Source: a virus (Duplodnaviria; Heunggongvirae; Uroviricota; Caudoviricetes). From it: a DNA stretch of 64,000 bases. Location of the stretch: IMG/VR virus record IMGVR_UViG_3300047471_000949, one strand, 5' to 3'. Numbering within the stretch: the stretch's first letter is position 1; each line of letters starts with the position of its first letter. A model generated the notes under the pieces. It worked only from the letters and a program-made list of their open reading frames with translations, was not told where the DNA came from and made no database searches. The translations under genes were made by a program, and so were the position numbers. Below, one piece after another: positions 367 to 25,732 of the stretch.

Positions 367-999
367 ATGAAAAAACTGCTACTTGCGACAACAGTTCTGA
401 CATTGTTATCTGTAAATCCTGCTTTTACAGATATTCTCGTTACTGTTGATAAGCCTTCTCAAACTGTTTTCGTTGACGTGGATGGTGTTCAGAAATACAT
501 CTGGCCGACGTCGACTGGCGCGCCTGGTTACGACACCCCTAACGGAAAATACAACGCCACCTCAATGAACGAAATCTGGTATTCGAAAAAGTTCGATGAT
601 TCGCCAATGCCACATTCCGTTTTCTTTAGGACTGATGGTTATGCGATCCACGGAACCTATTCGGAGAAAAGTCTAGGGCGTGCAGTATCGCACGGCTGCG
701 TCAGGCTGTCCCGTGAAAACGCGACGACCCTTTATGCGCTGGTCGAAGAACAAGGACTAGATAAGACAACCGTTGTGGTTCAAGGAAACCTTCCTTCTGC
801 AAATCCTCCGCTTTATAATCCCCCTCAGCAATATCAAGCCCCGGCACAACAGTATCAAATGCCTCCACAACAATATCAACAACAACAACCGCCACGATAT
901 TACCCACAACAACCGCCGCAATACTACTATCCACAGAATCGACAACGCGACATTTATGTGAGGATCGGGCCGTTCGGCTTTGTTATTCGCATTCGATGA
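367..999 (+). CDS. L,D-transpeptidase (YkuD/ErfK family) with signal peptide
   Basis: AIHGT...SHGCVRL catalytic motif, N-terminal signal peptide, Q/P/Y-rich tail. Confidence 0.9.
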   Translation: MKKLLLATTVLTLLSVNPAFTDILVTVDKPSQTVFVDVDGVQKYIWPTSTGAPGYDTPNGKYNATSMNEIWYSKKFDDSPMPHSVFFRTDGYAIHGTYSEKSLGRAVSHGCVRLSRENATTLYALVEEQGLDKTTVVVQGNLPSANPPLYNPPQQYQAPAQQYQMPPQQYQQQQPPRYYPQQPPQYYYPQNRQRDIYVRIGPFGFVIRIR

Positions 1000-6821: not shown

Positions 6822-7778
6822 ATGAGCGCAGAAGTAGAAACCTTTGCCTATAATAAGGCAGAATTACCATGGCACGGATTAGGAATCCCTGTCGAGGCCA
6901 ATCTAACACCTAAACAGATTCAGAAAGTAGCGAAGCTGAATTGGACTGTTGAAAAAGTTCCGTGTTATGCAATTATCAACGGCAAGAAAACTCTTGTCGC
7001 TCGACAAGCCTTGATCCGAAACTCCGACAACTCTATTCTCGATATTGTGTCGGATGACTGGAATCCGGTCCAAAACGACGAGGCATTCGAGTTCTTTACT
7101 GAATACTGTAAAGAAGGCGAAATGACGATGGAGACGGCCGGTTCGCTAAGAAACGGACAGATTGTCTTCGGTCTTGCCAAGATCAACGAGGCATTCGATC
7201 TATTCAAGGGCAACGATAAGATTCAGTCTTATATGTTGTTTACGAATCCCCACAAGTATGGCTGGTCGACCTCGGTGTCGTTCACGCCTATTCGTGTGGT
7301 GTGTATGAATACTCTTTGCCTCTCACTCTCGACTACAACAAACGATAAGATTGTGAGAGTGAACCATCGCAAGGAGTTCATTGCCGAGGAAGCTAAGAAA
7401 ACCCTTGGTATTGCTCGCAAGAAGCTTTCCGAATATAAGGAGCGAGCGCAACTGCTTTCGACACGCAAAGCTAACCAGACCGATATCGTGGAATACTTCA
7501 AGCATCTGTTCCCGGTGTTATCTAAAAAGGAAGAGCCGCGCGAGTTGTCGCTTCCTGCCAAGAAGCTATTGGAGACGGTTACCACCCAGCCTGGCGCAGA
7601 GTTCGGCGAAGGCACCTGGTGGCAGCCATACAATGCTGTGACCTTCTATCTCGATCACGAAGCAGGACGAACCCAGGACAGCCGGTTGACTTCGGCTTGG
7701 TTCGGAGCTGGACGAAAACTGAAAGTCAAGGCCCTGAACGAAGCTGTTACAAAAGCGCTTTGTTCGGCGACCGTCTAA
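6822..7778 (+). CDS. DUF932/DUF945 family phage/plasmid protein
   Basis: PWHGLG, YNPVQN-like, ETAGSL...G..VF and TPIRVVCMNTL motifs. Confidence 0.85.
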   Translation: MSAEVETFAYNKAELPWHGLGIPVEANLTPKQIQKVAKLNWTVEKVPCYAIINGKKTLVARQALIRNSDNSILDIVSDDWNPVQNDEAFEFFTEYCKEGEMTMETAGSLRNGQIVFGLAKINEAFDLFKGNDKIQSYMLFTNPHKYGWSTSVSFTPIRVVCMNTLCLSLSTTTNDKIVRVNHRKEFIAEEAKKTLGIARKKLSEYKERAQLLSTRKANQTDIVEYFKHLFPVLSKKEEPRELSLPAKKLLETVTTQPGAEFGEGTWWQPYNAVTFYLDHEAGRTQDSRLTSAWFGAGRKLKVKALNEAVTKALCSATV

Positions 7779-8308: not shown

Positions 8309-8528
8309 AACTACACGGCGTAAGAGCCTACCATTTAGTCCCGCTCATTTAGCGAATATCGAGGCAAGACTCGACGGGGGAAGGATGGCCAGAACGTAGT
8401 GTGCGAGCCCTGGCAGGCGTCACCAGCACTGTTGCGTGTAGTTGCTACTTTCTTTAGATGGTGCGTGGCATATCCGTATATGCCGTCCGACAACAATACC
8501 GTTGGAACCTGAGTACGGAGGGACGCAC
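8309..8528 (+). ncRNA. candidate structured RNA(s), family unassigned
   Basis: GC-rich intergenic stretch; 9-bp closing stem 8309-8317/8435-8443 with internal hairpins; second junction 8461-8528. Confidence 0.4.
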
Positions 8529-8546
8529 TCTCCAAGGAAAACGAAA

Positions 8547-8729
8547 ATGTCAAATAGAGAATATCTAGGCGATGGCGTTTATGCCGACTTTGACGGCTTC
8601 CAGATTTGGGTTGCCGCCAACGATGGCATTCGAGATTATGCCCGTGTAGCACTTGAACCAGCAGTAATGAAAGCGCTGGACAACTATCGCAAACGACTAA
8701 ACGAAGAGTATGGCGTAAAGCACTTATGA
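8547..8729 (+). CDS. hypothetical phage protein (YLGDGVYA motif)
   Basis: AAGGA SD favours ATG 8547 over TTG 8442. Confidence 0.7.
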   Translation: MSNREYLGDGVYADFDGFQIWVAANDGIRDYARVALEPAVMKALDNYRKRLNEEYGVKHL

Positions 8730-8908
8730 GAACGAAAATGAACAACCAAAAAATCGATCAACTGATTATAACACCCATTCCACATAATGGTCACGGTCAA
8801 GTGTATCAGACCAACTTGTGGGATATCTTGCGACAAGTCCACGATTGTCCTTCCGACATTGACTTGTTGATCGGTCCCAAAAAGGAGCAAAATGAGCAGA
8901 CGCTCTAA
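8726..8908 (+). CDS. hypothetical protein
   Basis: 60-aa ORF, ATGA overlap. Confidence 0.5.
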   Translation: MRTKMNNQKIDQLIITPIPHNGHGQVYQTNLWDILRQVHDCPSDIDLLIGPKKEQNEQTL

Positions 8909-8914
8909 TAAAAG

Positions 8915-9091
8915 ATGTTCGAAAATAGAACAGTAAAATGCTGCTCGTGTGGCCGGTTTATATCCTGGCAAGATCAGGACGCCGGCCACGCACACTTTTA
9001 CTATGAACCCCTAAGCGAATGCGGTCCTGAAATCTGTGAATGGACCTGTAAGAACTGCACAAACAAGGAGGCCGCTCGTGGCTCGATCTAA
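8915..9091 (+). CDS. small Cys-rich (zinc-binding) protein (58 aa)
   Basis: MFENRTVKCCSCGR...CKNC. Confidence 0.6.
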   Translation: MFENRTVKCCSCGRFISWQDQDAGHAHFYYEPLSECGPEICEWTCKNCTNKEAARGSI

Positions 9092-10166
9092 AGCTATCGC
9101 TAACGCAACATTCGAAACTATTCAATCCAGAATATTCGGTTCCACCGAACCGAATTCCAACGCCCATCTCGGTGATGCGCTGACCTGGTATTCTTCAATG
9201 AAGGACACCAGCGACGCTCGCCGCTATTTGAACACCTACCTTGAAGAGTTCAACCGATTAGAAGACATTGAAACGCTAGAACGTGTCCCTGATGAATGGG
9301 TAAAGAATACCGCCGGCTGGTTGGCTCGACTAGCAATGGAGGGATATCCACTTCAGGAGACTAATATCGAGTTTCTTGAGCGACAGCTCAAGGAAACCCT
9401 GAAGCACGCTGTAGTTCCCGAAGCGGAACCGATAATCATCAAGCTGTCCCCCAATATCCAGCAACGTATTCGCGAAAAAGCTTCTGATCTGATTGCTGAT
9501 ATTGAAGGACAGATAGACGATAAGACAATCACTCCAAAATGGTCGCTGTACGACTATCTACGAGGCCTTGGTACATCGGCAATGATTGCTAATAAGCTAA
9601 TCGATCACTTTCGTCCTCTTGCGGCGGAACTAATTGAGGCGTTCGATTCCAAGGATAAGGACCTGAAGGAAGCCTATAAAAAGTATTCTAATGCTGAGTT
9701 GGAACGGCTTGCCATTATCTATCAGAACCTTTTAGATGATGCTGTTCGTTATGCGTCCAACGCTAAGAAGGCAAGACGACCACGCGCCAAGAAAAAGCCA
9801 ACGGTTGAAAAGCTGTTACGCCATTTTCAATATCAGAAATCCAATGAAGAACTGAAGCTTGTATCGCTTGATCCGGCCAAGATCATCGCCGCGCAAGAGT
9901 TATGGACATACAATACCAAGTCCAAGCTGCTGTCTGTATTCCGCGCCAACGATTCTGACGGCTTGAATGTTCGTCGTTCTGCTATCATCAATATCAACGA
10001 GCAGACATCTATGGCCAAGAAAATCGGACGCAAGACTGAAGGACGATTGCAATCTGTTCTTACTGGCGGCAGGGTTGTCCTTCGCAATATGATGGAGGAG
10101 ATTACTGGTTCTTCGAAGCCGGTAACAAGGATTGGCAAGACGACTGTGCTATTGAGAGTGTTATAA
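9078..10166 (+). CDS. conserved T4-like phage hypothetical protein
   Basis: LKLVSLDPAKII...LWTYNTK motif typical of environmental T4-like phages; GTG 9078 has AAGGAG SD. Confidence 0.75.
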   Translation: MARSKAIANATFETIQSRIFGSTEPNSNAHLGDALTWYSSMKDTSDARRYLNTYLEEFNRLEDIETLERVPDEWVKNTAGWLARLAMEGYPLQETNIEFLERQLKETLKHAVVPEAEPIIIKLSPNIQQRIREKASDLIADIEGQIDDKTITPKWSLYDYLRGLGTSAMIANKLIDHFRPLAAELIEAFDSKDKDLKEAYKKYSNAELERLAIIYQNLLDDAVRYASNAKKARRPRAKKKPTVEKLLRHFQYQKSNEELKLVSLDPAKIIAAQELWTYNTKSKLLSVFRANDSDGLNVRRSAIININEQTSMAKKIGRKTEGRLQSVLTGGRVVLRNMMEEITGSSKPVTRIGKTTVLLRVL

Positions 10167-10396
10167 TGAGGCCGCACGCAATGGGTGGAAAAATCCCAAA
10201 GACGACGAGTGGAATGCCATATCCAGAAAACTTGAAGCCGATAGGTCATCCTGGTGCTGGCCCAAACTGGTTCTCGCCTATCCCTTGTGAGCCATGCGCC
10301 TGTGGTTGCCCTAATCATTCGGGATGTAGCGTAACGGCTTTTAATAGGGACGCTTTTATGCAAATCATCGATAGAAGAAGAAAAGCTAATAAATGA
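10166..10396 (+). CDS. hypothetical protein
   Basis: TAATG-coupled, Cys cluster. Confidence 0.5.
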   Translation: MRPHAMGGKIPKTTSGMPYPENLKPIGHPGAGPNWFSPIPCEPCACGCPNHSGCSVTAFNRDAFMQIIDRRRKANK

Positions 10397-10584
10397 CCAA
10401 AATAAAAAACCTGATATCTGGTCTGACGATCCTCGCTGAATATTCAAACGAAGTTACTTGTGATCACCGAACTATTTTTGCTGGTCCTATAGGAATGGAC
10501 AAGATATCCAAAGATCATTACAAAGAACTATTAGCAATGGACTGGGACTTTGAGCTGGGCGAGGGCTGGTCCTTCCTTTTATAA
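10393..10584 (+). CDS. hypothetical protein
   Basis: 63-aa ORF, ATGA overlap. Confidence 0.65.
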   Translation: MTKIKNLISGLTILAEYSNEVTCDHRTIFAGPIGMDKISKDHYKELLAMDWDFELGEGWSFLL

Positions 10585-10587
10585 ATA
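10580..10587 (+). promoter_or_regulatory. T4-type late promoter
   Basis: exact TATAAATA. Confidence 0.7.
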
Positions 10588-10605
10588 AACCAGAGGAAAA
10601 CGTAA

Positions 10606-11010
10606 ATGAAGTTACATCGATCTATTATCCTTGGTCTTGTTCTTGCAGTAATGGTTTGTAAAACAAGTTCTATGATGCCAGTTGCCTATGCGGCTGAACC
10701 ACAGATTACTGATAAGCTTCCAGTCCCAAAACCTCCGGGACCAAATCGCCCGCCCGTTTTAGCTGAAAATCTTTCTTGTATTCCTTCAGAATCAGCAGAA
10801 CAAAACCTAAAACAAGCCGGCCAGAAACCTATTTTTGGGGTTTTTGATGGAAAACAGGTCATAATGGTTTTTGTTAATTCTGAGCAACAAACTTATGTGA
10901 TTGTTATAATCCCTGCTAATAATCCAGAAGTTGTATGCATATTATCCAAGGGCGAAGGCTATAATCTAAAGCTTGAGAACTTATCTAACAGCAAGTCGGA
11001 AACGCTCTAA
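10606..11010 (+). CDS. secreted/periplasmic hypothetical protein
   Basis: signal peptide, two Cys; GAGG SD. Confidence 0.7.
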   Translation: MKLHRSIILGLVLAVMVCKTSSMMPVAYAAEPQITDKLPVPKPPGPNRPPVLAENLSCIPSESAEQNLKQAGQKPIFGVFDGKQVIMVFVNSEQQTYVIVIIPANNPEVVCILSKGEGYNLKLENLSNSKSETL

Positions 11011-11049
11011 AACAGTTCTTGACATCTAAGGCCGGATGCTATATAAATA
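11010..11049 (+). promoter_or_regulatory. composite early and late promoter for the RNA locus
   Basis: AAACAGTTC-TTGACA (11019-11024) and TATAAATA (11042-11049), which sits at the -10 position. Confidence 0.75.
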
Positions 11050-11139
11050 TCATAGGATACATTAGGAGTTCAGAGGACGTCCACTAAAAGCAGCCACATA
11101 CGGCTATAATGCTAATCTGGATAAACCTAGTGTGTCTTG

Positions 11140-11448
11140 TTTATCGTTGATGACGTTCAAAATAGGTGTTTGTCACCAGGGCTCATTCCCTGCACCTCCA
11201 CCAGGAGCGCAAGAATTGCAAGTTCTTCCGACTTTTATCAGTAACTTAACGTAAGAGTAGAACGAGGCAAATTTCTTGTGTTCCTGATGGGGGTGAAAGG
11301 ATCGAACATCACTGAAGCTAAAACCGAGACGATATCGCTGGCCGAGTGGCTCGTAAAATAGAGAACGACGAACAGTTCCCACTTGCCTTGGCTGCCTAAC
11401 AGCTAAGCGGAGTTTCGGGATTATCTTGGCAACAGAAAAATCCCACTT
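11140..11448 (+). ncRNA. ssrA: circularly permuted (two-piece) tmRNA
   Basis: acceptor piece ends CACCTCC-ACCA (11204); coding piece starts GGGGGTG (11289) giving G3-U70 and A73; tag (A)ENDEQFPLALAA* at 11361-11399; alpha-type 3' hairpin with GGCAACAGAA. Confidence 0.92.
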
Positions 11449-11454
11449 TTATAA

Positions 11455-11673
11455 ATGTATTATCTTTATATAAAACAACACAATATAACAAACAAAGCAA
11501 ATAGAGGCAATCATAATCTTGGTGGTTGGAATCGCGGATTAACTATTAATAATCCTATTATTGCCGCAAATATCAAGGCGATGGCAGACGCAACAAGAGG
11601 AAAAAAGAAGCCGCTGGAACAACGTAGGAAAATGAGTATTGCCCAGAAAAAACGTTGGGCAAAAACCTTATAA
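11455..11673 (+). pseudogene. internally deleted GIY-YIG/NUMOD3 homing endonuclease remnant
   Basis: MYYLYIKQHNIT start and RGKKKPLEQRRKMSIAQKKRW NUMOD3-like end, no catalytic core. Confidence 0.55.
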
Positions 11674-11948
11674 TGGTAGCAGACAATAATCAGATATCAC
11701 AAATACTAAATCCAGACTTCTCATTTGTTAGTGAGATTGAGCGACAAGTCAAAGAGACTAATGTCGGTTATCTTGACTGCATTTTTGATTACTGCTCTAA
11801 ACGCAATTTAGAATATGAGCAAGTTATCCACTTGATTAAAAGCAATCCAGAGTTCAAGAATAAAATACAGGCCGAAGCCGAGGCGCTTAATCTTTTGAAA
11901 AAGCTCCCTCCCAAAAAGAAGCCAAAGCGAAGGAAGAAAAAGAAATGA
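11673..11948 (+). CDS. gp33: late promoter transcription co-activator gp33
   Basis: FVSEIE...YLDCIFDYC...KIQAEAEALNLL; TAATG-coupled start. Confidence 0.85.
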   Translation: MVADNNQISQILNPDFSFVSEIERQVKETNVGYLDCIFDYCSKRNLEYEQVIHLIKSNPEFKNKIQAEAEALNLLKKLPPKKKPKRRKKKK

Positions 11949-12148
11949 AAGTTACAATTGAGACAGCCCCTCTAACATATTCTTATCCATTTGATTATGC
12001 TATTTGTTATGGTGATCTAAGTGGTGTTTTGGCTATTTGTCGTGATAAAAGCATTGCTGAGGAATTTGTCAAAAACTTGTCGGAAAACCAATGGGCGCTA
12101 GGAATAGGCCCATTAACTGTGCGTCCAGTGAAAGGATTTGAGAAATGA
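11945..12148 (+). CDS. hypothetical protein
   Basis: ATGA-coupled ORF. Confidence 0.6.
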   Translation: MKVTIETAPLTYSYPFDYAICYGDLSGVLAICRDKSIAEEFVKNLSENQWALGIGPLTVRPVKGFEK

Positions 12149-12381
12149 GTTTTATTGAATTAACCATCTTATCACACGATGAACTGAATGGCGAGAAAAT
12201 CCTAATCCGAGGCGAAGACATTCGAAGGATTATGGAGGTAAAACACTTCAAGGACAAAATTCCTGATGTAGTGTCCGGAGAAAAGCCTATAAAATGTTCG
12301 CTAATCTGGTTGGTTAGTGGACAGGCCCAGAAAGTAGCCGAAACTCCGATTGAAATTAGAGGAATGTTGGAGAAGAAATGA
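12145..12381 (+). CDS. hypothetical protein
   Basis: ATGA-coupled ORF. Confidence 0.65.
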   Translation: MSFIELTILSHDELNGEKILIRGEDIRRIMEVKHFKDKIPDVVSGEKPIKCSLIWLVSGQAQKVAETPIEIRGMLEKK

Positions 12382-12635
12382 CTGAAGAACCTCGCATCAT
12401 AGTTATAAAAAAAGACGAAGATGATATGCCTATCGGCCGACGATCTGGTCGCGCCCCTGGTGTTATAAACGGCCGCCGCGTTTTCGACAAAGTAAACACC
12501 GCGAAGAAACGTTCACGAGCCCGACTGGAACGAGCTGCCGAAGGCTGGAATCGACATATTGAAAACCATCCTCGCGACGAAATGGCTCGAAAATGTCTCT
12601 CTAACCTGAATGATAGATTAAGGAGCATTAATTGA
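12378..12635 (+). CDS. hypothetical basic protein
   Basis: ATGA-coupled ORF. Confidence 0.65.
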   Translation: MTEEPRIIVIKKDEDDMPIGRRSGRAPGVINGRRVFDKVNTAKKRSRARLERAAEGWNRHIENHPRDEMARKCLSNLNDRLRSIN

Positions 12636-12853
12636 TGGTAGTAGAATATCAAAAAACAGTTAAACGAACCCTTTGGGTCGCTCAATGTAATTGTGATCAA
12701 CAAGACCCTTGGCGAGTGATATTTGCTGAGAACGCCCCTCGTGAAAAGATGTGTCCAAAGTGTGGCACGTGGGTTGCAATCAGAGAAGAAACAGCGACCA
12801 GTCCTGAATATAAGATGTTGAATGAGCAAGAGGGGAAAATAAATGCCCGTTGA
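12632..12853 (+). CDS. zinc-ribbon-like hypothetical protein
   Basis: CNC...CPKC. Confidence 0.6.
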   Translation: MMVVEYQKTVKRTLWVAQCNCDQQDPWRVIFAENAPREKMCPKCGTWVAIREETATSPEYKMLNEQEGKINAR

Positions 12854-12923
12854 ATGGTGGATTGTCTGTGGAATAGCCGTTTTAATGTTACCAATTTATG
12901 CTTGGTTCTTTTTTGGTAAGTAA
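12843..12923 (+). CDS. small membrane peptide (26 aa)
   Basis: MPVEWWIVCGIAVLMLPIYAWFFFGK; GAGGGG SD. Confidence 0.5.
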   Translation: MPVEWWIVCGIAVLMLPIYAWFFFGK

Positions 12924-13112
12924 ATGATGATACGTAGTAATCGCTATCAGGAAGGTTATAATAACGGCTGGAAAAAAGCTATGGAAGATATTGATATTAG
13001 CCGTGATACCATAATCGAGGAATGCGCGCAAATAGCAGACGGTTGGGCTCGTGGCGACAATAGCCCCCATCGGCTCGGGGAAGTAATTCGCGCGATAAAA
13101 AATAAGCTATGA
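12924..13112 (+). CDS. hypothetical protein
   Basis: 62-aa ORF. Confidence 0.65.
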   Translation: MMIRSNRYQEGYNNGWKKAMEDIDISRDTIIEECAQIADGWARGDNSPHRLGEVIRAIKNKL

Positions 13113-13291
13113 TGTATTCTTTTTATGGAAAGAATTTTTTCTTTATCAAGGAATGTTCTGACCTCGATCACGTTAAATTGACCATAGATCGCTGCCGAAA
13201 AACTTATAAAACTTGCGGTTATTATGTAAACCGACATATCAGTAAAGTTACTGATAGTTTAGGAGTTGTGATATATCCAGCCGATAGATAA
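13109..13291 (+). CDS. hypothetical protein
   Basis: ATGA-coupled ORF. Confidence 0.55.
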   Translation: MMYSFYGKNFFFIKECSDLDHVKLTIDRCRKTYKTCGYYVNRHISKVTDSLGVVIYPADR

Positions 13292-13307
13292 ATAATGATA
13301 AATCTCC

Positions 13308-13796
13308 ATGAAAATATCAATCATTGGGAAACCAAAAAACACTAAGAAGTCCTCGATAAGATATGCGGCTAAGTTTTTTGCCAATGAATTGCTGTCCAAA
13401 AGGTTATCTGATAATATCCTTGTTAGAATCGTCTTCGATAAGAACATAATCGCCGAGGATTTATCCTATCACGATGATGGCTCTTGTATGTTTACTTTAT
13501 TTGAAGAAACTGGCTTCCCTCGCGAGTTTGAAATTCTTATTAGACCATCTTTATCCCGCGCCGATACCTATATGGTGCTGGCCCACGAAATGTCGCATGT
13601 TGAACAATACGCCAGAGGACGACTCCATTTTTATCAAAGAGACTCAGATCGAGCCAGATGGAAAAACAAAGTCTATAAATCTACCATAAAAAGTCTAAAG
13701 GAATATCTAAGGAAGCCTTGGGAAATCGAGGCAACAAAAATGGAGGAAAAATTGATCGAAGCACTCTATCTCCATCTCAAAGAGAACAATCAATAA
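13308..13796 (+). CDS. putative HExxH zinc metallopeptidase
   Basis: LAHEMSHVEQY...PWEIEA. Confidence 0.8.
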   Translation: MKISIIGKPKNTKKSSIRYAAKFFANELLSKRLSDNILVRIVFDKNIIAEDLSYHDDGSCMFTLFEETGFPREFEILIRPSLSRADTYMVLAHEMSHVEQYARGRLHFYQRDSDRARWKNKVYKSTIKSLKEYLRKPWEIEATKMEEKLIEALYLHLKENNQ

Positions 13797-14149: not shown

Positions 14150-14287
14150 ATGAGATTTAAAGATTTTGCCGATTGGATAGAGAGTATTGGTCAAACAAGA
14201 CGACTTCTTATTGCTATTACCATCGTATTTTTTGGATCGTGGCTTGGTGTTCTTATAGGTCTTATGTTGGCATTAGTCATGCGATGA
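14150..14287 (+). CDS. small membrane protein (45 aa)
   Basis: MRFKDFADW...one TM helix; ATGA overlap with gp59. Confidence 0.6.
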   Translation: MRFKDFADWIESIGQTRRLLIAITIVFFGSWLGVLIGLMLALVMR

Positions 14288-14862
14288 CTCCCAATGATTG
14301 TCTTCGATTGTTTCTGACGCTCAAGCTACACTTCTCCCAACCTTCTTACGACTGGTTCAAGTATAAGGGAGAGCTAAAGTATCGTCCTGATATATCGAAG
14401 CGCCGCGATAAGTATCAGCTAATGAAAATAACCAAACACCCCGATGCCCAGGGACTCTTGCTGGCTAATCTAAGCTTGAACCCGCATATTTGGCCTGGCG
14501 ATATTCTGTCCGACAAAGGACTAACAATCTATAAGAACTGGAAGAAACGACGGGAGAGTCTGTCCTATACCTTCCAGGAGGAGATTAAACAGCTACTTCC
14601 GGACTTTAATGAGAACTTTATAATGAAGCAAAACGAGCATCCTTATGCGCTTCGGCTCTTTCTTGGCGAACACATCTCGCTCGATACTCTTGTTATCTTG
14701 AATCAGTTAGTGAAATTTTATCAGACCTGGAATAAGACATTAGATAACGATATAGTTTGGAAAGAGATAAGCCTTATTATTCCGAAGTATCAACCTTTCC
14801 TAAATATTGATAGCGATAAGTTTAAGAAGATATTAATGGAAAGGTTTAATGACCAGGAATGA
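14284..14862 (+). CDS. gp59: loader of DNA helicase gp59
   Basis: LKLHFSQPSYDWFKY...RRDKY...ISLDTLVILN; true start ATG 14284. Confidence 0.9.
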   Translation: MTPNDCLRLFLTLKLHFSQPSYDWFKYKGELKYRPDISKRRDKYQLMKITKHPDAQGLLLANLSLNPHIWPGDILSDKGLTIYKNWKKRRESLSYTFQEEIKQLLPDFNENFIMKQNEHPYALRLFLGEHISLDTLVILNQLVKFYQTWNKTLDNDIVWKEISLIIPKYQPFLNIDSDKFKKILMERFNDQE

Positions 14863-16186: not shown

Positions 16187-17227
16187 ATGATAAGCAACTT
16201 TCAAGAACTAAAAAATAACCGACAAGATCGTTTCGATCAACTCACCAAAAAACTCAATCAAATGTCCAAGGGCAACTTCTATAATGAAAATGAAGATAAC
16301 CGCTTTTGGAAACTAACCGTCGATAAGACCGGAAATGGCTATGCAGTCATCAGGTTCCTGCCAGAACCACAGGGCGAAGGCGAGCCGTTTGTTCAACTGT
16401 ATTCACACGCCTTCAAGGGACCCGGCGGCTGGTATATCGAAAACTCTCTGACCACCCGAACTAAGGATCGCCCCGAAGGTTCGGCGGACCCGCTCTCTGA
16501 GTATAACTCAAAGCGATGGGCGGAAGGAGAAAAGTCGGAGGGACGTCGATTTGTCTCAGGAGATTTTACTACCAAGCCGCCTACCCCCGGCTCCAAGCGA
16601 AAGAACGGCTATTATTCCAATATCTATGTGGTGGAAGATCAAACCAATCCGGCCAATAACGGCAAGGTGTTCCTGTTCAAGTATGGTCCTCGCATTATGG
16701 ATAAGATTGAAGAAGCGCAGAACCCGAAGTTCCCCGATGTGGAAAAGTTCAACCCGTTTGATCTATATACCGGAGCCAACTTTAAGCTGAAGGCTCGACT
16801 GGTCGAAGGACAACGTAACTATAACTCGTCAGAATGGGACCTGGTCGAGGGAGAATCTGGCGTCAAGAAGCCACGTGGAGCCCTATCATCCAACGAAGAT
16901 ATGCTGGAGACGATATGGAAGTCGGAATATTCGCTGCAAGAGATTGTAGCTCCTTCCAAGTTCAAGACCTATAATCAACTGAAAGAACGGTTGAACAAGG
17001 TGCTGGCGCTTGATAGAACCGGCAACTATGAGGTTGCTGAGGGACAGAGTGATCCGTGGAAATCCCCCGAAAAGGAGTATGATCACTCAGGGGAAAATGC
17101 CCAAGTATCCGCTCCATGGGAAGACGAAGGAAGAACTGCTCCGTTGGAAGCCGAGAAGCTTCCTGAGCTGGCTGCATCCGAAACCGAAGACGACCTCGAT
17201 TATTTTCGGAAGTTACGAGATTCGTGA
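16187..17227 (+). CDS. gp32: single-stranded DNA-binding protein gp32
   Basis: DNRFWKLTVDKTGNGYAVIRFLP...HAFKGPGGWYIENSLTT; acidic tail DDLDYFRKL. Confidence 0.97.
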   Translation: MISNFQELKNNRQDRFDQLTKKLNQMSKGNFYNENEDNRFWKLTVDKTGNGYAVIRFLPEPQGEGEPFVQLYSHAFKGPGGWYIENSLTTRTKDRPEGSADPLSEYNSKRWAEGEKSEGRRFVSGDFTTKPPTPGSKRKNGYYSNIYVVEDQTNPANNGKVFLFKYGPRIMDKIEEAQNPKFPDVEKFNPFDLYTGANFKLKARLVEGQRNYNSSEWDLVEGESGVKKPRGALSSNEDMLETIWKSEYSLQEIVAPSKFKTYNQLKERLNKVLALDRTGNYEVAEGQSDPWKSPEKEYDHSGENAQVSAPWEDEGRTAPLEAEKLPELAASETEDDLDYFRKLRDS

Positions 17228-24603: not shown

Positions 24604-25314
24604 TCAGCGATCATGAAACGCTGCCTTCCTTATTGTATTAACTGAATCTTGCCAAACATGGTATTCAGAAGACTTCATAAAATTGGCCAACGGCATAAAG
24701 AGAACTGAATTCCACTTGGGCGGGGAAATAACCATAAGTCGTGATCGAATATTAGAAAGTAGATACTTTTTGATACACGGACGAAAGTAGGCATACTTGG
24801 ATGATCCCGAAAGGATTTTATAGGAAATGATCAGGCGAGTGTGTTCGTCGGCTCGGTGTGTCGAGACAACTGACGATAGTGCCATCATCAGCCTTGCGCG
24901 TTCGACCGGAGGCAGATAATGCATGTTCATTCCAGTCATGGAGTTACCCGCGATTGTAAACGGAAACACCAGGGGAAAAGTATCGTAGTAGGGCAGCGTT
25001 CCCTTCCCCTTCGGATCATAATTGAAGAAGATCATCTGTCCAATCATTCGTCGGTTGACCTGGGATGTTGTCTCCTGCGCATTCTCCATGACCTGTTTGC
25101 GAGCCTCGGACGGGGTAATGCTATCTTTTTTAGCGGCAGCAGTAGCTAATGCATCGGCCGAGGAGGGGGCCGTAGTCTTCTTGGTCTGTTCGGCGGCTTG
25201 TCCTTGCCGGGCAAGTTCTCGTATCTGGGAGAGGTAGAACTCGAGTGAACCTTTTCCTGAGGCGGAATGTTCGCGTCGAAGTCGAGCGATATAGTCCTCG
25301 AGTGACTCAGCCAC
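24604..25314 (-). CDS. gp2: DNA end protector protein gp2
   Basis: FFNYDPK...LPYYDTFPLVFP...GMNMHYLPP. Confidence 0.9.
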   Translation of the reverse strand: MAESLEDYIARLRREHSASGKGSLEFYLSQIRELARQGQAAEQTKKTTAPSSADALATAAAKKDSITPSEARKQVMENAQETTSQVNRRMIGQMIFFNYDPKGKGTLPYYDTFPLVFPFTIAGNSMTGMNMHYLPPVERARLMMALSSVVSTHRADEHTRLIISYKILSGSSKYAYFRPCIKKYLLSNIRSRLMVISPPKWNSVLFMPLANFMKSSEYHVWQDSVNTIRKAAFHDR

Positions 25315-25732
25315 GCTGTGGTATCCCTAATTCAATCTCAGTCAGTATCTTGAAACTCCAACCTCGTTGTTCACAATAACGGCGGGCAGCTTCCCACTTT
25401 TTAAGGTTGATGGCAAAGGTTGCGCTTTCCTTCAGGAAGCGTCGCATTGTTGATTTATGCACAGGTTGAACAGTTTCTTTAGCTGGTTTTATCTCAACCA
25501 GGTAAGTATGTCCTGTGTTATCTTTCACACGAAAATCAGGAAAGTATCGATGAATATTATTATCCAGCGGAGATTGATAGGGCACAGCGATTTCCTCAGA
25601 CGACCACTCAATAATATTCGGATCATTATCAAGTTTCATCATATACTTTAACTCCCAGCTTGACCTCCACACAATATTTGTTGGGTTGCCTCGGTACTTG
25701 GAGGAGTTTTTAAGTTTAAATAAACCTTTCAT
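25307..25732 (-). CDS. gp4: head completion nuclease gp4 (TnsA-like)
   Basis: KYRGNPTNIVWRSSWE...WSSEEIAVPY...HRYFPDF. Confidence 0.95.
   Translation of the reverse strand: MKGLFKLKNSSKYRGNPTNIVWRSSWELKYMMKLDNDPNIIEWSSEEIAVPYQSPLDNNIHRYFPDFRVKDNTGHTYLVEIKPAKETVQPVHKSTMRRFLKESATFAINLKKWEAARRYCEQRGWSFKILTEIELGIPQRG

Follow-up and report, generated by a model that had tools for sequence, protein, structure and literature searches.

Two-piece tmRNAs, the products of circularly permuted genes, are known from Caulobacter (Keiler, Shapiro and Williams 2000, as cited in PMC9004378) and are found in many aquatic T4-like phages, among which the copies of Melnitz and HTVC008M lie just upstream of gp33 (PMC9004378). 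In a 2021 phage genome set, 53 of the 133 unique phage tmRNAs were two-piece (Buchholz et al. 2022, PMC9004378), a two-piece tmRNA was present in 17 of 47 Melnitz-like contigs (PMC9004378), and the tmRNA database holds 79 unique phage sequences (PMC11915505). One-piece tmRNAs occur in mycobacteriophages, and the DS6A form, as cited in PMC11915505, consists of the tRNA-like domain only. In our own searches, permuted tmRNAs were found in Melnitz, Mosig, and HTVC008M, with the HTVC008M copy located approximately 630 bases upstream of gp33, as well as in at least 18 of the 80 IMG/VR loci fetched via gp32, and none was found in Cr30 or phiM12. From the published and the confirmed phage copies, the kind of gene and even its gp33 locus are thus already known. 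To our knowledge, no functional study of a phage-borne tmRNA has been reported.

The locus analyzed herein lies in a 64,000-nucleotide stretch of viral DNA (hereafter the window), for which an earlier note had proposed a phage-encoded, circularly permuted tmRNA. When the whole window was searched by Rfam cmscan, including the alpha tmRNA model that the note had recommended, 11095-11447 (+) matched RF01849 alpha_tmRNA with 53.4 bits (gathering 50) and 11142-11399 (+) matched RF04321 tmRNA_permuted with 52.7 bits (gathering 47), margins over gathering that are narrow relative to the scores of the relatives described below. A sensitive Rfam rescan of 10900-11600 at E <=1 returned the same two tmRNA models and one chance sRNA match. 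Two models above gathering and the full anatomy thus bore the proposal out, and window 11142-11447 (+) was confirmed as a circularly permuted (two-piece) tmRNA gene. The note had further called permuted ssrA the alphaproteobacterial form, which is too narrow, since betaproteobacteria, cyanobacteria, and numerous phages are also known to have permuted genes (PMC9004378, PMC11915505). The parts of the gene are as follows.

11142-11203 (+), acceptor piece, 62 nt, exact 5' end provisional (Rfam alignments, scripts)
11329-11334 with 11142-11147, outer helix-2 pairing, 6 bp (script, cofold of the two pieces)
11303-11310 with 11165-11172, helix 2a, 8 bp including two G-U pairs (script, cofold of the two pieces)
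Within the acceptor piece 11142-11203 (+), linker UCAC before the T arm
11177-11192, T arm, with a 5-bp stem 11177-11181/11188-11192, CAGGG/CCCUG (script)
11182-11187, T-loop CUCAUU, 6 nt
11289-11295 with 11193-11199, acceptor stem, GGGGGUG with CACCUCC, 7 bp, with G3-U70 (script)
11200 and 11201-11203 (+), A73 and encoded CCA (sequence, script)
11204-11288 (+), intervening segment, presumably excised, 85 nt, closed hairpin of -30.7 kcal/mol
11289-11447 (+), coding piece, about 159 nt (Rfam alignments, cofold, covariation)
Within the coding piece, together with the acceptor 5' strand 11289-11295 and the helix-2a strand 11303-11310, short D-loop analogue AAAGGAUCGAAC
11361-11399 (+), tag frame, with putative resume codon GAG, ENDEQFPLALAA, and stop UAA
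11417-11451 (+), 3' terminal hairpin GGGAUU/AAUCCC with loop UGGCAACAGAA, followed by a U run, likely terminator

The order found is that of a permuted gene, in which the 3' tRNA-like half with its CCA is followed by the intervening segment, the 5' tRNA-like half, and the tag frame. The intervening segment is closed by a 12-bp stem and one additional A-U pair, to which CCA contributes its final A, UGAU stands directly before G1 (11289) of the coding piece, and the 3' hairpin loop UGGCAACAGAA agrees with the alpha_tmRNA consensus. Checked by scripts, the anatomy that the note had described, namely G3-U70, A73, CCA, the 6-nt T-loop, both helix-2 pairings, and the closing stem, proved to be right to the base. 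A Logan contig and a JGI contig, each from another assembly, matched region 11011-11460 with 100% identity, and low-coverage contigs from four further rhizosphere/soil runs (8500-13500 compared) contained zero differences inside the tmRNA. The identity among these assemblies and runs indicated that the short T-loop is real sequence and not an assembly error.

The genes identified in the window are of the T4-like kind, including those for gp6 and gp25 (baseplate), the tail tube protein, gp32, gp59, and gp33, the last three of which are placed as follows.

11673-11948 (+), gene for a gp33-type late-transcription coactivator (PF16805, E 1.7e-13)
14284-14862, gp59 (Pfam on window ORFs)
16187-17227, gp32 (Pfam on window ORFs)

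The tmRNA is located approximately 225 bases upstream of the gp33 gene, and the gp6 is approximately 32% identical to its counterparts in Caulobacter phage Cr30 and the Sinorhizobium phiM12 group. The gp33 protein of the window was recorded on a 185-kb contig, and all runs holding the sequence were rhizosphere, soil, or root metagenomes. Searches for closer relatives were negative: the tmRNA region gave no match among INPHARED phages by megablast or blastn, an exact 18-mer from the coding piece was absent from IMG/VR, a related-locus search with the 376-aa upstream protein found no relative, and a gp33 homologue search recovered the window's own protein only. A gp59 relative at 72% identity lies on a contig that would end short of the tmRNA position, and locus L093, whose gp59 is 43% identical, contains gp33 and lacks the tmRNA. 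Several further proteins were observed along the window. A protein with a TnsA-like endonuclease N-terminal domain (PF08722, E 2e-23; 25307-25732 (-)) adjoins the tail tube gene, as does one in the distant relative L093 (12962-13402 (-)). The window also encodes a YkuD-type L,D-transpeptidase domain protein (367-999 (+), PF03734, E 1e-18), a DUF932 protein (6822-7778 (+), E 3e-39), and a weakly matched DUF6782 metallopeptidase-like protein (13308-13796 (+)), the last with a counterpart at the matching position in the related locus L289.

This setting also bears on the idea that the gene is a fragment of a host ssrA acquired by a prophage at its attachment site, in line with the fact that tmRNA genes are common integration sites and that fragments of them occur in prophages (PMC9004378, PMC11915505). 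The gene, however, is complete and is situated 11 kb inside a T4-like replication/late-transcription block behind a phage-type promoter, no integrase was detected among the window proteins scanned, and the position is syntenic in lytic T4-like phages, so that we regard such an origin as scarcely credible. We instead consider it quite probable that an uncultured T4-like myovirus from rhizosphere/soil, with a genome of approximately 185 kb, encodes a functional two-piece tmRNA (ssrA) at this locus. This reading is founded on the tmRNA homology, the permuted order, all of the tRNA-like identity elements, the covariation of the helices, and a tag frame and 6-nt T-loop that four diverged phages have retained.

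Upstream of the gene, two elements were recognized.

11019-11049 (+), composite promoter, with TTGACA at 11019-11024, a 17-nt spacer, and TATAAATA at 11042-11049
11052-11141 (+), structured leader of approximately 90 nt (MFE -31.1 kcal/mol, z -4.1)

The TATAAATA element reads in two ways, as a sigma-70 -10 element (TATAAA) and as a T4-type late promoter. TATAAATA, the T4 late-promoter motif, is enriched in the window, where 11 copies, mostly ahead of ORF starts, compare with 3.9 expected, and 0 of 100 shuffles reached 11. The arrangement TTGACA-N17-TATAAATA was also found upstream of the tmRNA in two related loci, L384 and L379, and the contig of L289 is cut exactly at TATAAATA. The earlier claim that both early and late promoters drive the gene accordingly stands as far as the composite motif and its conservation in L384 and L379 are concerned, and the dual use itself is suggested by that conservation. 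As for the leader, one of similar size in L289 (3717-3806 (-), z -2.1) has the GGACGUCC palindrome in common with that of the window, and no such leader was present between promoter and tmRNA in L384 or L379. It could serve in processing or represent a small RNA of its own.

The tag frame is a short one that ends in the hydrophobic A-L/V-A-A manner of tmRNA tags directly before a stop, and its GAG start is atypical. The divergent tag with an unusual start that the earlier note had described was thus recovered, the frame translating to ENDEQFPLALAA and a stop behind the putative resume codon GAG (Glu). In the Rfam alignment GAG aligns to the consensus GCA, and this register, together with the codon that stands directly before AAC GAY in the relatives, points to GAG as the exact resume codon. 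A GCU at 11349, which is in frame here, was considered in its place and rejected, because the GCUCG that corresponds to it in L289 falls outside the reading frame of that tag. In most tmRNAs the resume codon encodes alanine, and in some it encodes glycine (Giudice et al., PMC3968760). Across the four phages that share the six-base T-loop CUCAUU, hereafter the clade, the codon is GCA in L289 and L379, GUC (Val) in L384, and GAG (Glu) in the window. In each of the four, the tag terminates in LAA before a stop, and against these constant C-termini the N-terminal halves show wide variation.

The choice of resume codon appeared to affect automated detection. ARAGORN with default settings did not report the gene in the window, and with a lowered threshold it made 26 calls there, mostly spurious. 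The program detected the genes of L289 and L379 (GCA) and missed those of the window (GAG) and L384 (GUC). Since all four possess the 6-nt loop and only the pair with an alanine start was detected, the resume codon is a likelier cause of the miss than the T-loop. Non-alanine resume codons are hence a likely blind spot of ARAGORN, and tmRNA genes of this kind would be under-annotated.

The same variation could be taken to mean that the tag has been retuned, in that a Glu or Val start and a changed N-terminal half would alter the choice of adaptor or protease relative to host-tagged proteins, as in the SspB idea of the earlier note. The non-alanine codons in two of the four clade members (window GAG, L384 GUC) and the widely varying N-terminal halves above fixed C-termini agree with such retuning. 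However, N-terminal halves vary in all phage and bacterial tmRNAs, so that the variation need not mean retuning. We hold retuning to be very unlikely, and return to the functional tmRNA as the preferred reading.

In its overall sequence, the window copy is the most divergent of those scored on RF04321: it reached 52.7 bits, the other clade members 68-77, 16 gp32-linked phage copies 85-130, and 151 sampled alphaproteobacteria mostly 117-170. The best nucleotide match among all collected loci, and the upper limit for any phage copy, was approximately 60% identity over 275 nt. As a side observation on the bacterial sample, the alphaproteobacterial genomes G103, G107, and G108 (L237-L239; 1.1-1.8 Mb) had permuted tmRNAs of only 34-58 bits, with no standard T arm recognizable by script. 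The changes of the window copy cluster in the elbow, where the T-loop is reduced to 6 nt with no U54, CAC takes the place of GAC in the linker ahead of the T stem, and UCGAAC stands for UCGAC. The elbow is the binding site of SmpB (PMC3968760), whose binding needs contacts between the T-loop and the D-loop (Giudice et al., PMC3968760). Given this need, and given that resume codons are mostly alanine codons, the elbow and resume-codon changes of the window are non-trivial.

In place of the typical 7-nt T-loop, then, the window has one of 6 nt. The loop was 7 nt long in 22 other gp32-linked phage loci (21 distinct tmRNAs), in 89 true tmRNAs whose T stem and acceptor match those of the window, and in the inspected alphaproteobacteria. 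The CAC linker was seen in the window only, GAC being present in every other copy examined, clade mates included. As to UCGAAC in the 5' strand, its CGAA can pair with UUUG and thereby lengthen helix 2a. A script search of IMG/VR for the GGGGNNGAANGGNTCGAAC pattern returned 115 matches, among which there were zero permuted tmRNAs with UCGAAC. The 'loops' of other than 7 nt that a genome pattern scan returned were rejected as chance matches outside any tmRNA context, and a Kineosporia match with CTCATT (L554) was likewise discarded, since it is not a tmRNA by Rfam.

The six-base loop was, however, not confined to the window. One metagenome scan and two IMG/VR pattern scans brought the clade to at least four members including the window, the others being L289 (Ga0265338_10049360), L384 (IMGVR_UViG_3300050821_012736), and L379 (IMGVR_UViG_3300032223_001523), and further CUCAUU members are likely to exist. 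The tmRNAs of L379 and L384, like that of the window, were without a match in INPHARED. All four are permuted tmRNAs in which the CUCAUU T-loop is invariant. The gene for gp33 follows immediately downstream of the tmRNA in L289 and L384, and then gp59, plus gp32 in L384. In L379, the curli genes csgG and csgF were observed directly downstream of the tmRNA (8516-9879 (-)), in keeping with the curli module described from Melnitz and the pelagimyophages. With gp59 and gp33 only 35-46% identical to those of the window, the clade mates are distant relatives. Compared with the window, all three keep the GAC linker, and L289 has UCGAAC too; the D-loop analogue of the clade is short, with AAAGG or AACGG before UCGA.

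Comparison of the four sequences revealed compensatory changes at two acceptor-stem positions, three T-stem positions, three outer-helix-2 positions, and at least three positions of the 3' hairpin, with zero broken pairs. The acceptor stem covaries in L384 and L379 and the 3' hairpin stem in L289, L384, and L379, and the compensatory positions of outer helix 2 lie equally far from the T stem and from G1 in all four. The intervening segments are unalignable (window 85, L289 71, L384 99, and L379 16 nt), yet in three of the four the segment closes with a perfect or nearly perfect stem (12 bp in the window, 10 bp in L289, and 8 bp in L384) beside the conserved UGAU before G1. As at least 11 compensatory changes are accompanied by no broken pair despite the flanking identity of 35-46%, the tmRNA of the clade is selected and not decaying. 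Only near-clonal copies of the exact sequence of the window are known, and the selection seen here concerns the features of the clade rather than the window-specific CAC and GAG.

These data weigh on the view that the gene is a relic, the decaying remnant of a once functional phage tmRNA. The window does have the lowest covariance-model scores of the copies compared, and the CAC linker and the GAG resume codon were each seen in it alone. Its acceptor stem, G3-U70, A73, CCA, T stem, helix 2, tag frame, stop, 3' hairpin loop, and promoter are nonetheless intact, and its oddest feature, the 6-nt loop, is invariant across phages at 35-46% protein identity. Decay is in our judgment highly improbable, and a functional tmRNA remains our reading.

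The identical CUCAUU loop was, moreover, found among the matches listed in a one-piece tmRNA of Candidatus Saccharibacteria (L537 5805-6223 (-), CAYUOR010000002.1), which scored 96.1 bits on RF00023. This copy shares with the window the 5-bp T stem, the acceptor CACCUCC-ACCA, and an 11-nt D-loop analogue, but it is cellular, is encoded by a standard non-permuted gene, and is otherwise unrelated in sequence. Its occurrence in a bona fide one-piece bacterial tmRNA makes the short loop compatible with a working tmRNA, and, being present in at least three other phage tmRNAs and at least one RF00023 bacterial tmRNA, the 6-nt loop is a variant within the tmRNA family. Judged by these sequence comparisons, the six-base loop is a recurrent, selected variant of the elbow and not a lesion. 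The D-loop analogues were 11-12 nt long in all five CUCAUU copies, and some copies with a 7-nt T-loop were equally short there; a correlation in which the short T-loop goes with a short D-loop analogue is possible.

The concentration of the divergence in the SmpB-binding elbow might also be read as the mark of a decoy, namely an RNA that is made and perhaps charged, and whose altered elbow titrates SmpB or blocks stalled ribosomes, thereby inhibiting trans-translation of the host. A precedent is the DS6A tmRNA, whose tRNA-like domain alone inhibited the endogenous tmRNA in E. coli in the report cited in PMC11915505. A decoy, on the other hand, would have no need of the tag frame, LAA with the stop, the sequence upstream of the resume codon, or the 3' hairpin, all of which are kept in four diverged phages, and on the bacterial contig that was inspected, the one tmRNA candidate observed has the CUCAUU loop. 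We consider a decoy quite unlikely.

More speculatively, the four phage CUCAUU copies could form a distinct phage-borne subclass with a contracted elbow (6-nt T-loop, no U54, and shortened D-loop analogue) and, in the case of the window and L289, with a helix 2a lengthened by CGAA/UUYG pairs where others have unpaired GAC motifs. The interaction with SmpB or with the enzymes that modify the T-loop would be altered in such RNAs, and, in combination with non-alanine resume codons, they would provide a channel of rescue and tagging functionally separate from that of the host. This extension strikes us as unlikely.

The preferred reading, a functional two-piece tmRNA, predicts a ribosome-rescue RNA working with host factors; that this RNA is processed and charged, employs host SmpB, adds tags, and is of some benefit to the phage is what we infer. 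One precursor would be transcribed from the promoter read as both host sigma-70 and T4-type late, and the 85-nt intervening hairpin would be removed by an RNase P cut before G11289 and by 3' trimming to the CCA ending at 11203. The resulting 62-nt acceptor and approximately 159-nt coding pieces would be held together by the acceptor stem and helix 2, and the host AlaRS, recognizing G3-U70 and A73, would charge the RNA with alanine. With host SmpB and EF-Tu, the charged RNA would enter stalled ribosomes of the infected cell, and translation would resume on the tag frame to give (A)ENDEQFPLALAA, the C-terminal LAA of which would mark the product for degradation of the ClpXP type.

Such a pathway presupposes a source of SmpB. 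The look-up of smpB that the earlier note had suggested found no match in the 64-kb window, which represents part of a genome of approximately 185 kb: Pfam assigned PF01668 (SmpB) to not one of the 30 window ORFs scanned (63-376 aa), and tblastn and a small profile HMM run against the six frames of the window gave nothing credible. SmpB was also absent from the complete genomes of HTVC008M, Melnitz, and Mosig. Its absence from the window and from the related complete genomes fits with reliance on host SmpB.

Among the known systems, Melnitz, HTVC008M, and Mosig are the nearest to the window copy, with which they have in common an alpha-type permuted tmRNA in a T4-like myovirus without SmpB, a tag ending in ALAA, and a position directly upstream of gp33 with an early-type promoter ahead. 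They differ in having a 7-nt T-loop, a GAC linker, and 90-113 bits on RF04321 in contrast to 6 nt, CAC, and 52.7 bits for the window, in their resume codons, which are GCA or GGC in contrast to GAG, and in their habitat, which is marine in contrast to soil/rhizosphere. In Melnitz, a glutamine riboswitch (RF01739, 52.8 bits; L006 1886-1934 (+)) was detected right after the tmRNA, and such a riboswitch has been reported beside the tmRNA for Melnitz and Mosig, not for all members; none was detected at window 10900-11600 (Rfam, E <=1). With the alphaproteobacterial tmRNA (RF01849), the window shares the order of acceptor piece, intervening segment, and coding piece, a tag of the form NDx...ALAA, and the 3' hairpin loop GGCAACAGAA. 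The sampled alphaproteobacterial copies, in contrast, have a T-loop GGCRGUA of 7 nt and a GGAC linker, and the window copy is phage-borne with phage promoter motifs. The tmRNAs of mycobacteriophages are likewise phage-borne in the absence of a phage SmpB, but they are encoded by standard or truncated genes, belong to other phage and host groups, and in DS6A lack a tag frame.

Set against these systems, the window copy extends the Melnitz/pelagimyophage type from marine to soil/rhizosphere phages, and it adds to the evidence that the gp33-linked position and the dual early/late promoter motif are conserved across very distant relatives. Its T-loop, shorter by one base, offers a natural test case for what SmpB, AlaRS, TrmA, and TruB need at the contact between T-loop and D-loop. 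What makes it noteworthy is its membership in a conserved short-T-loop subclade, its putative glutamate resume codon, and its soil origin.
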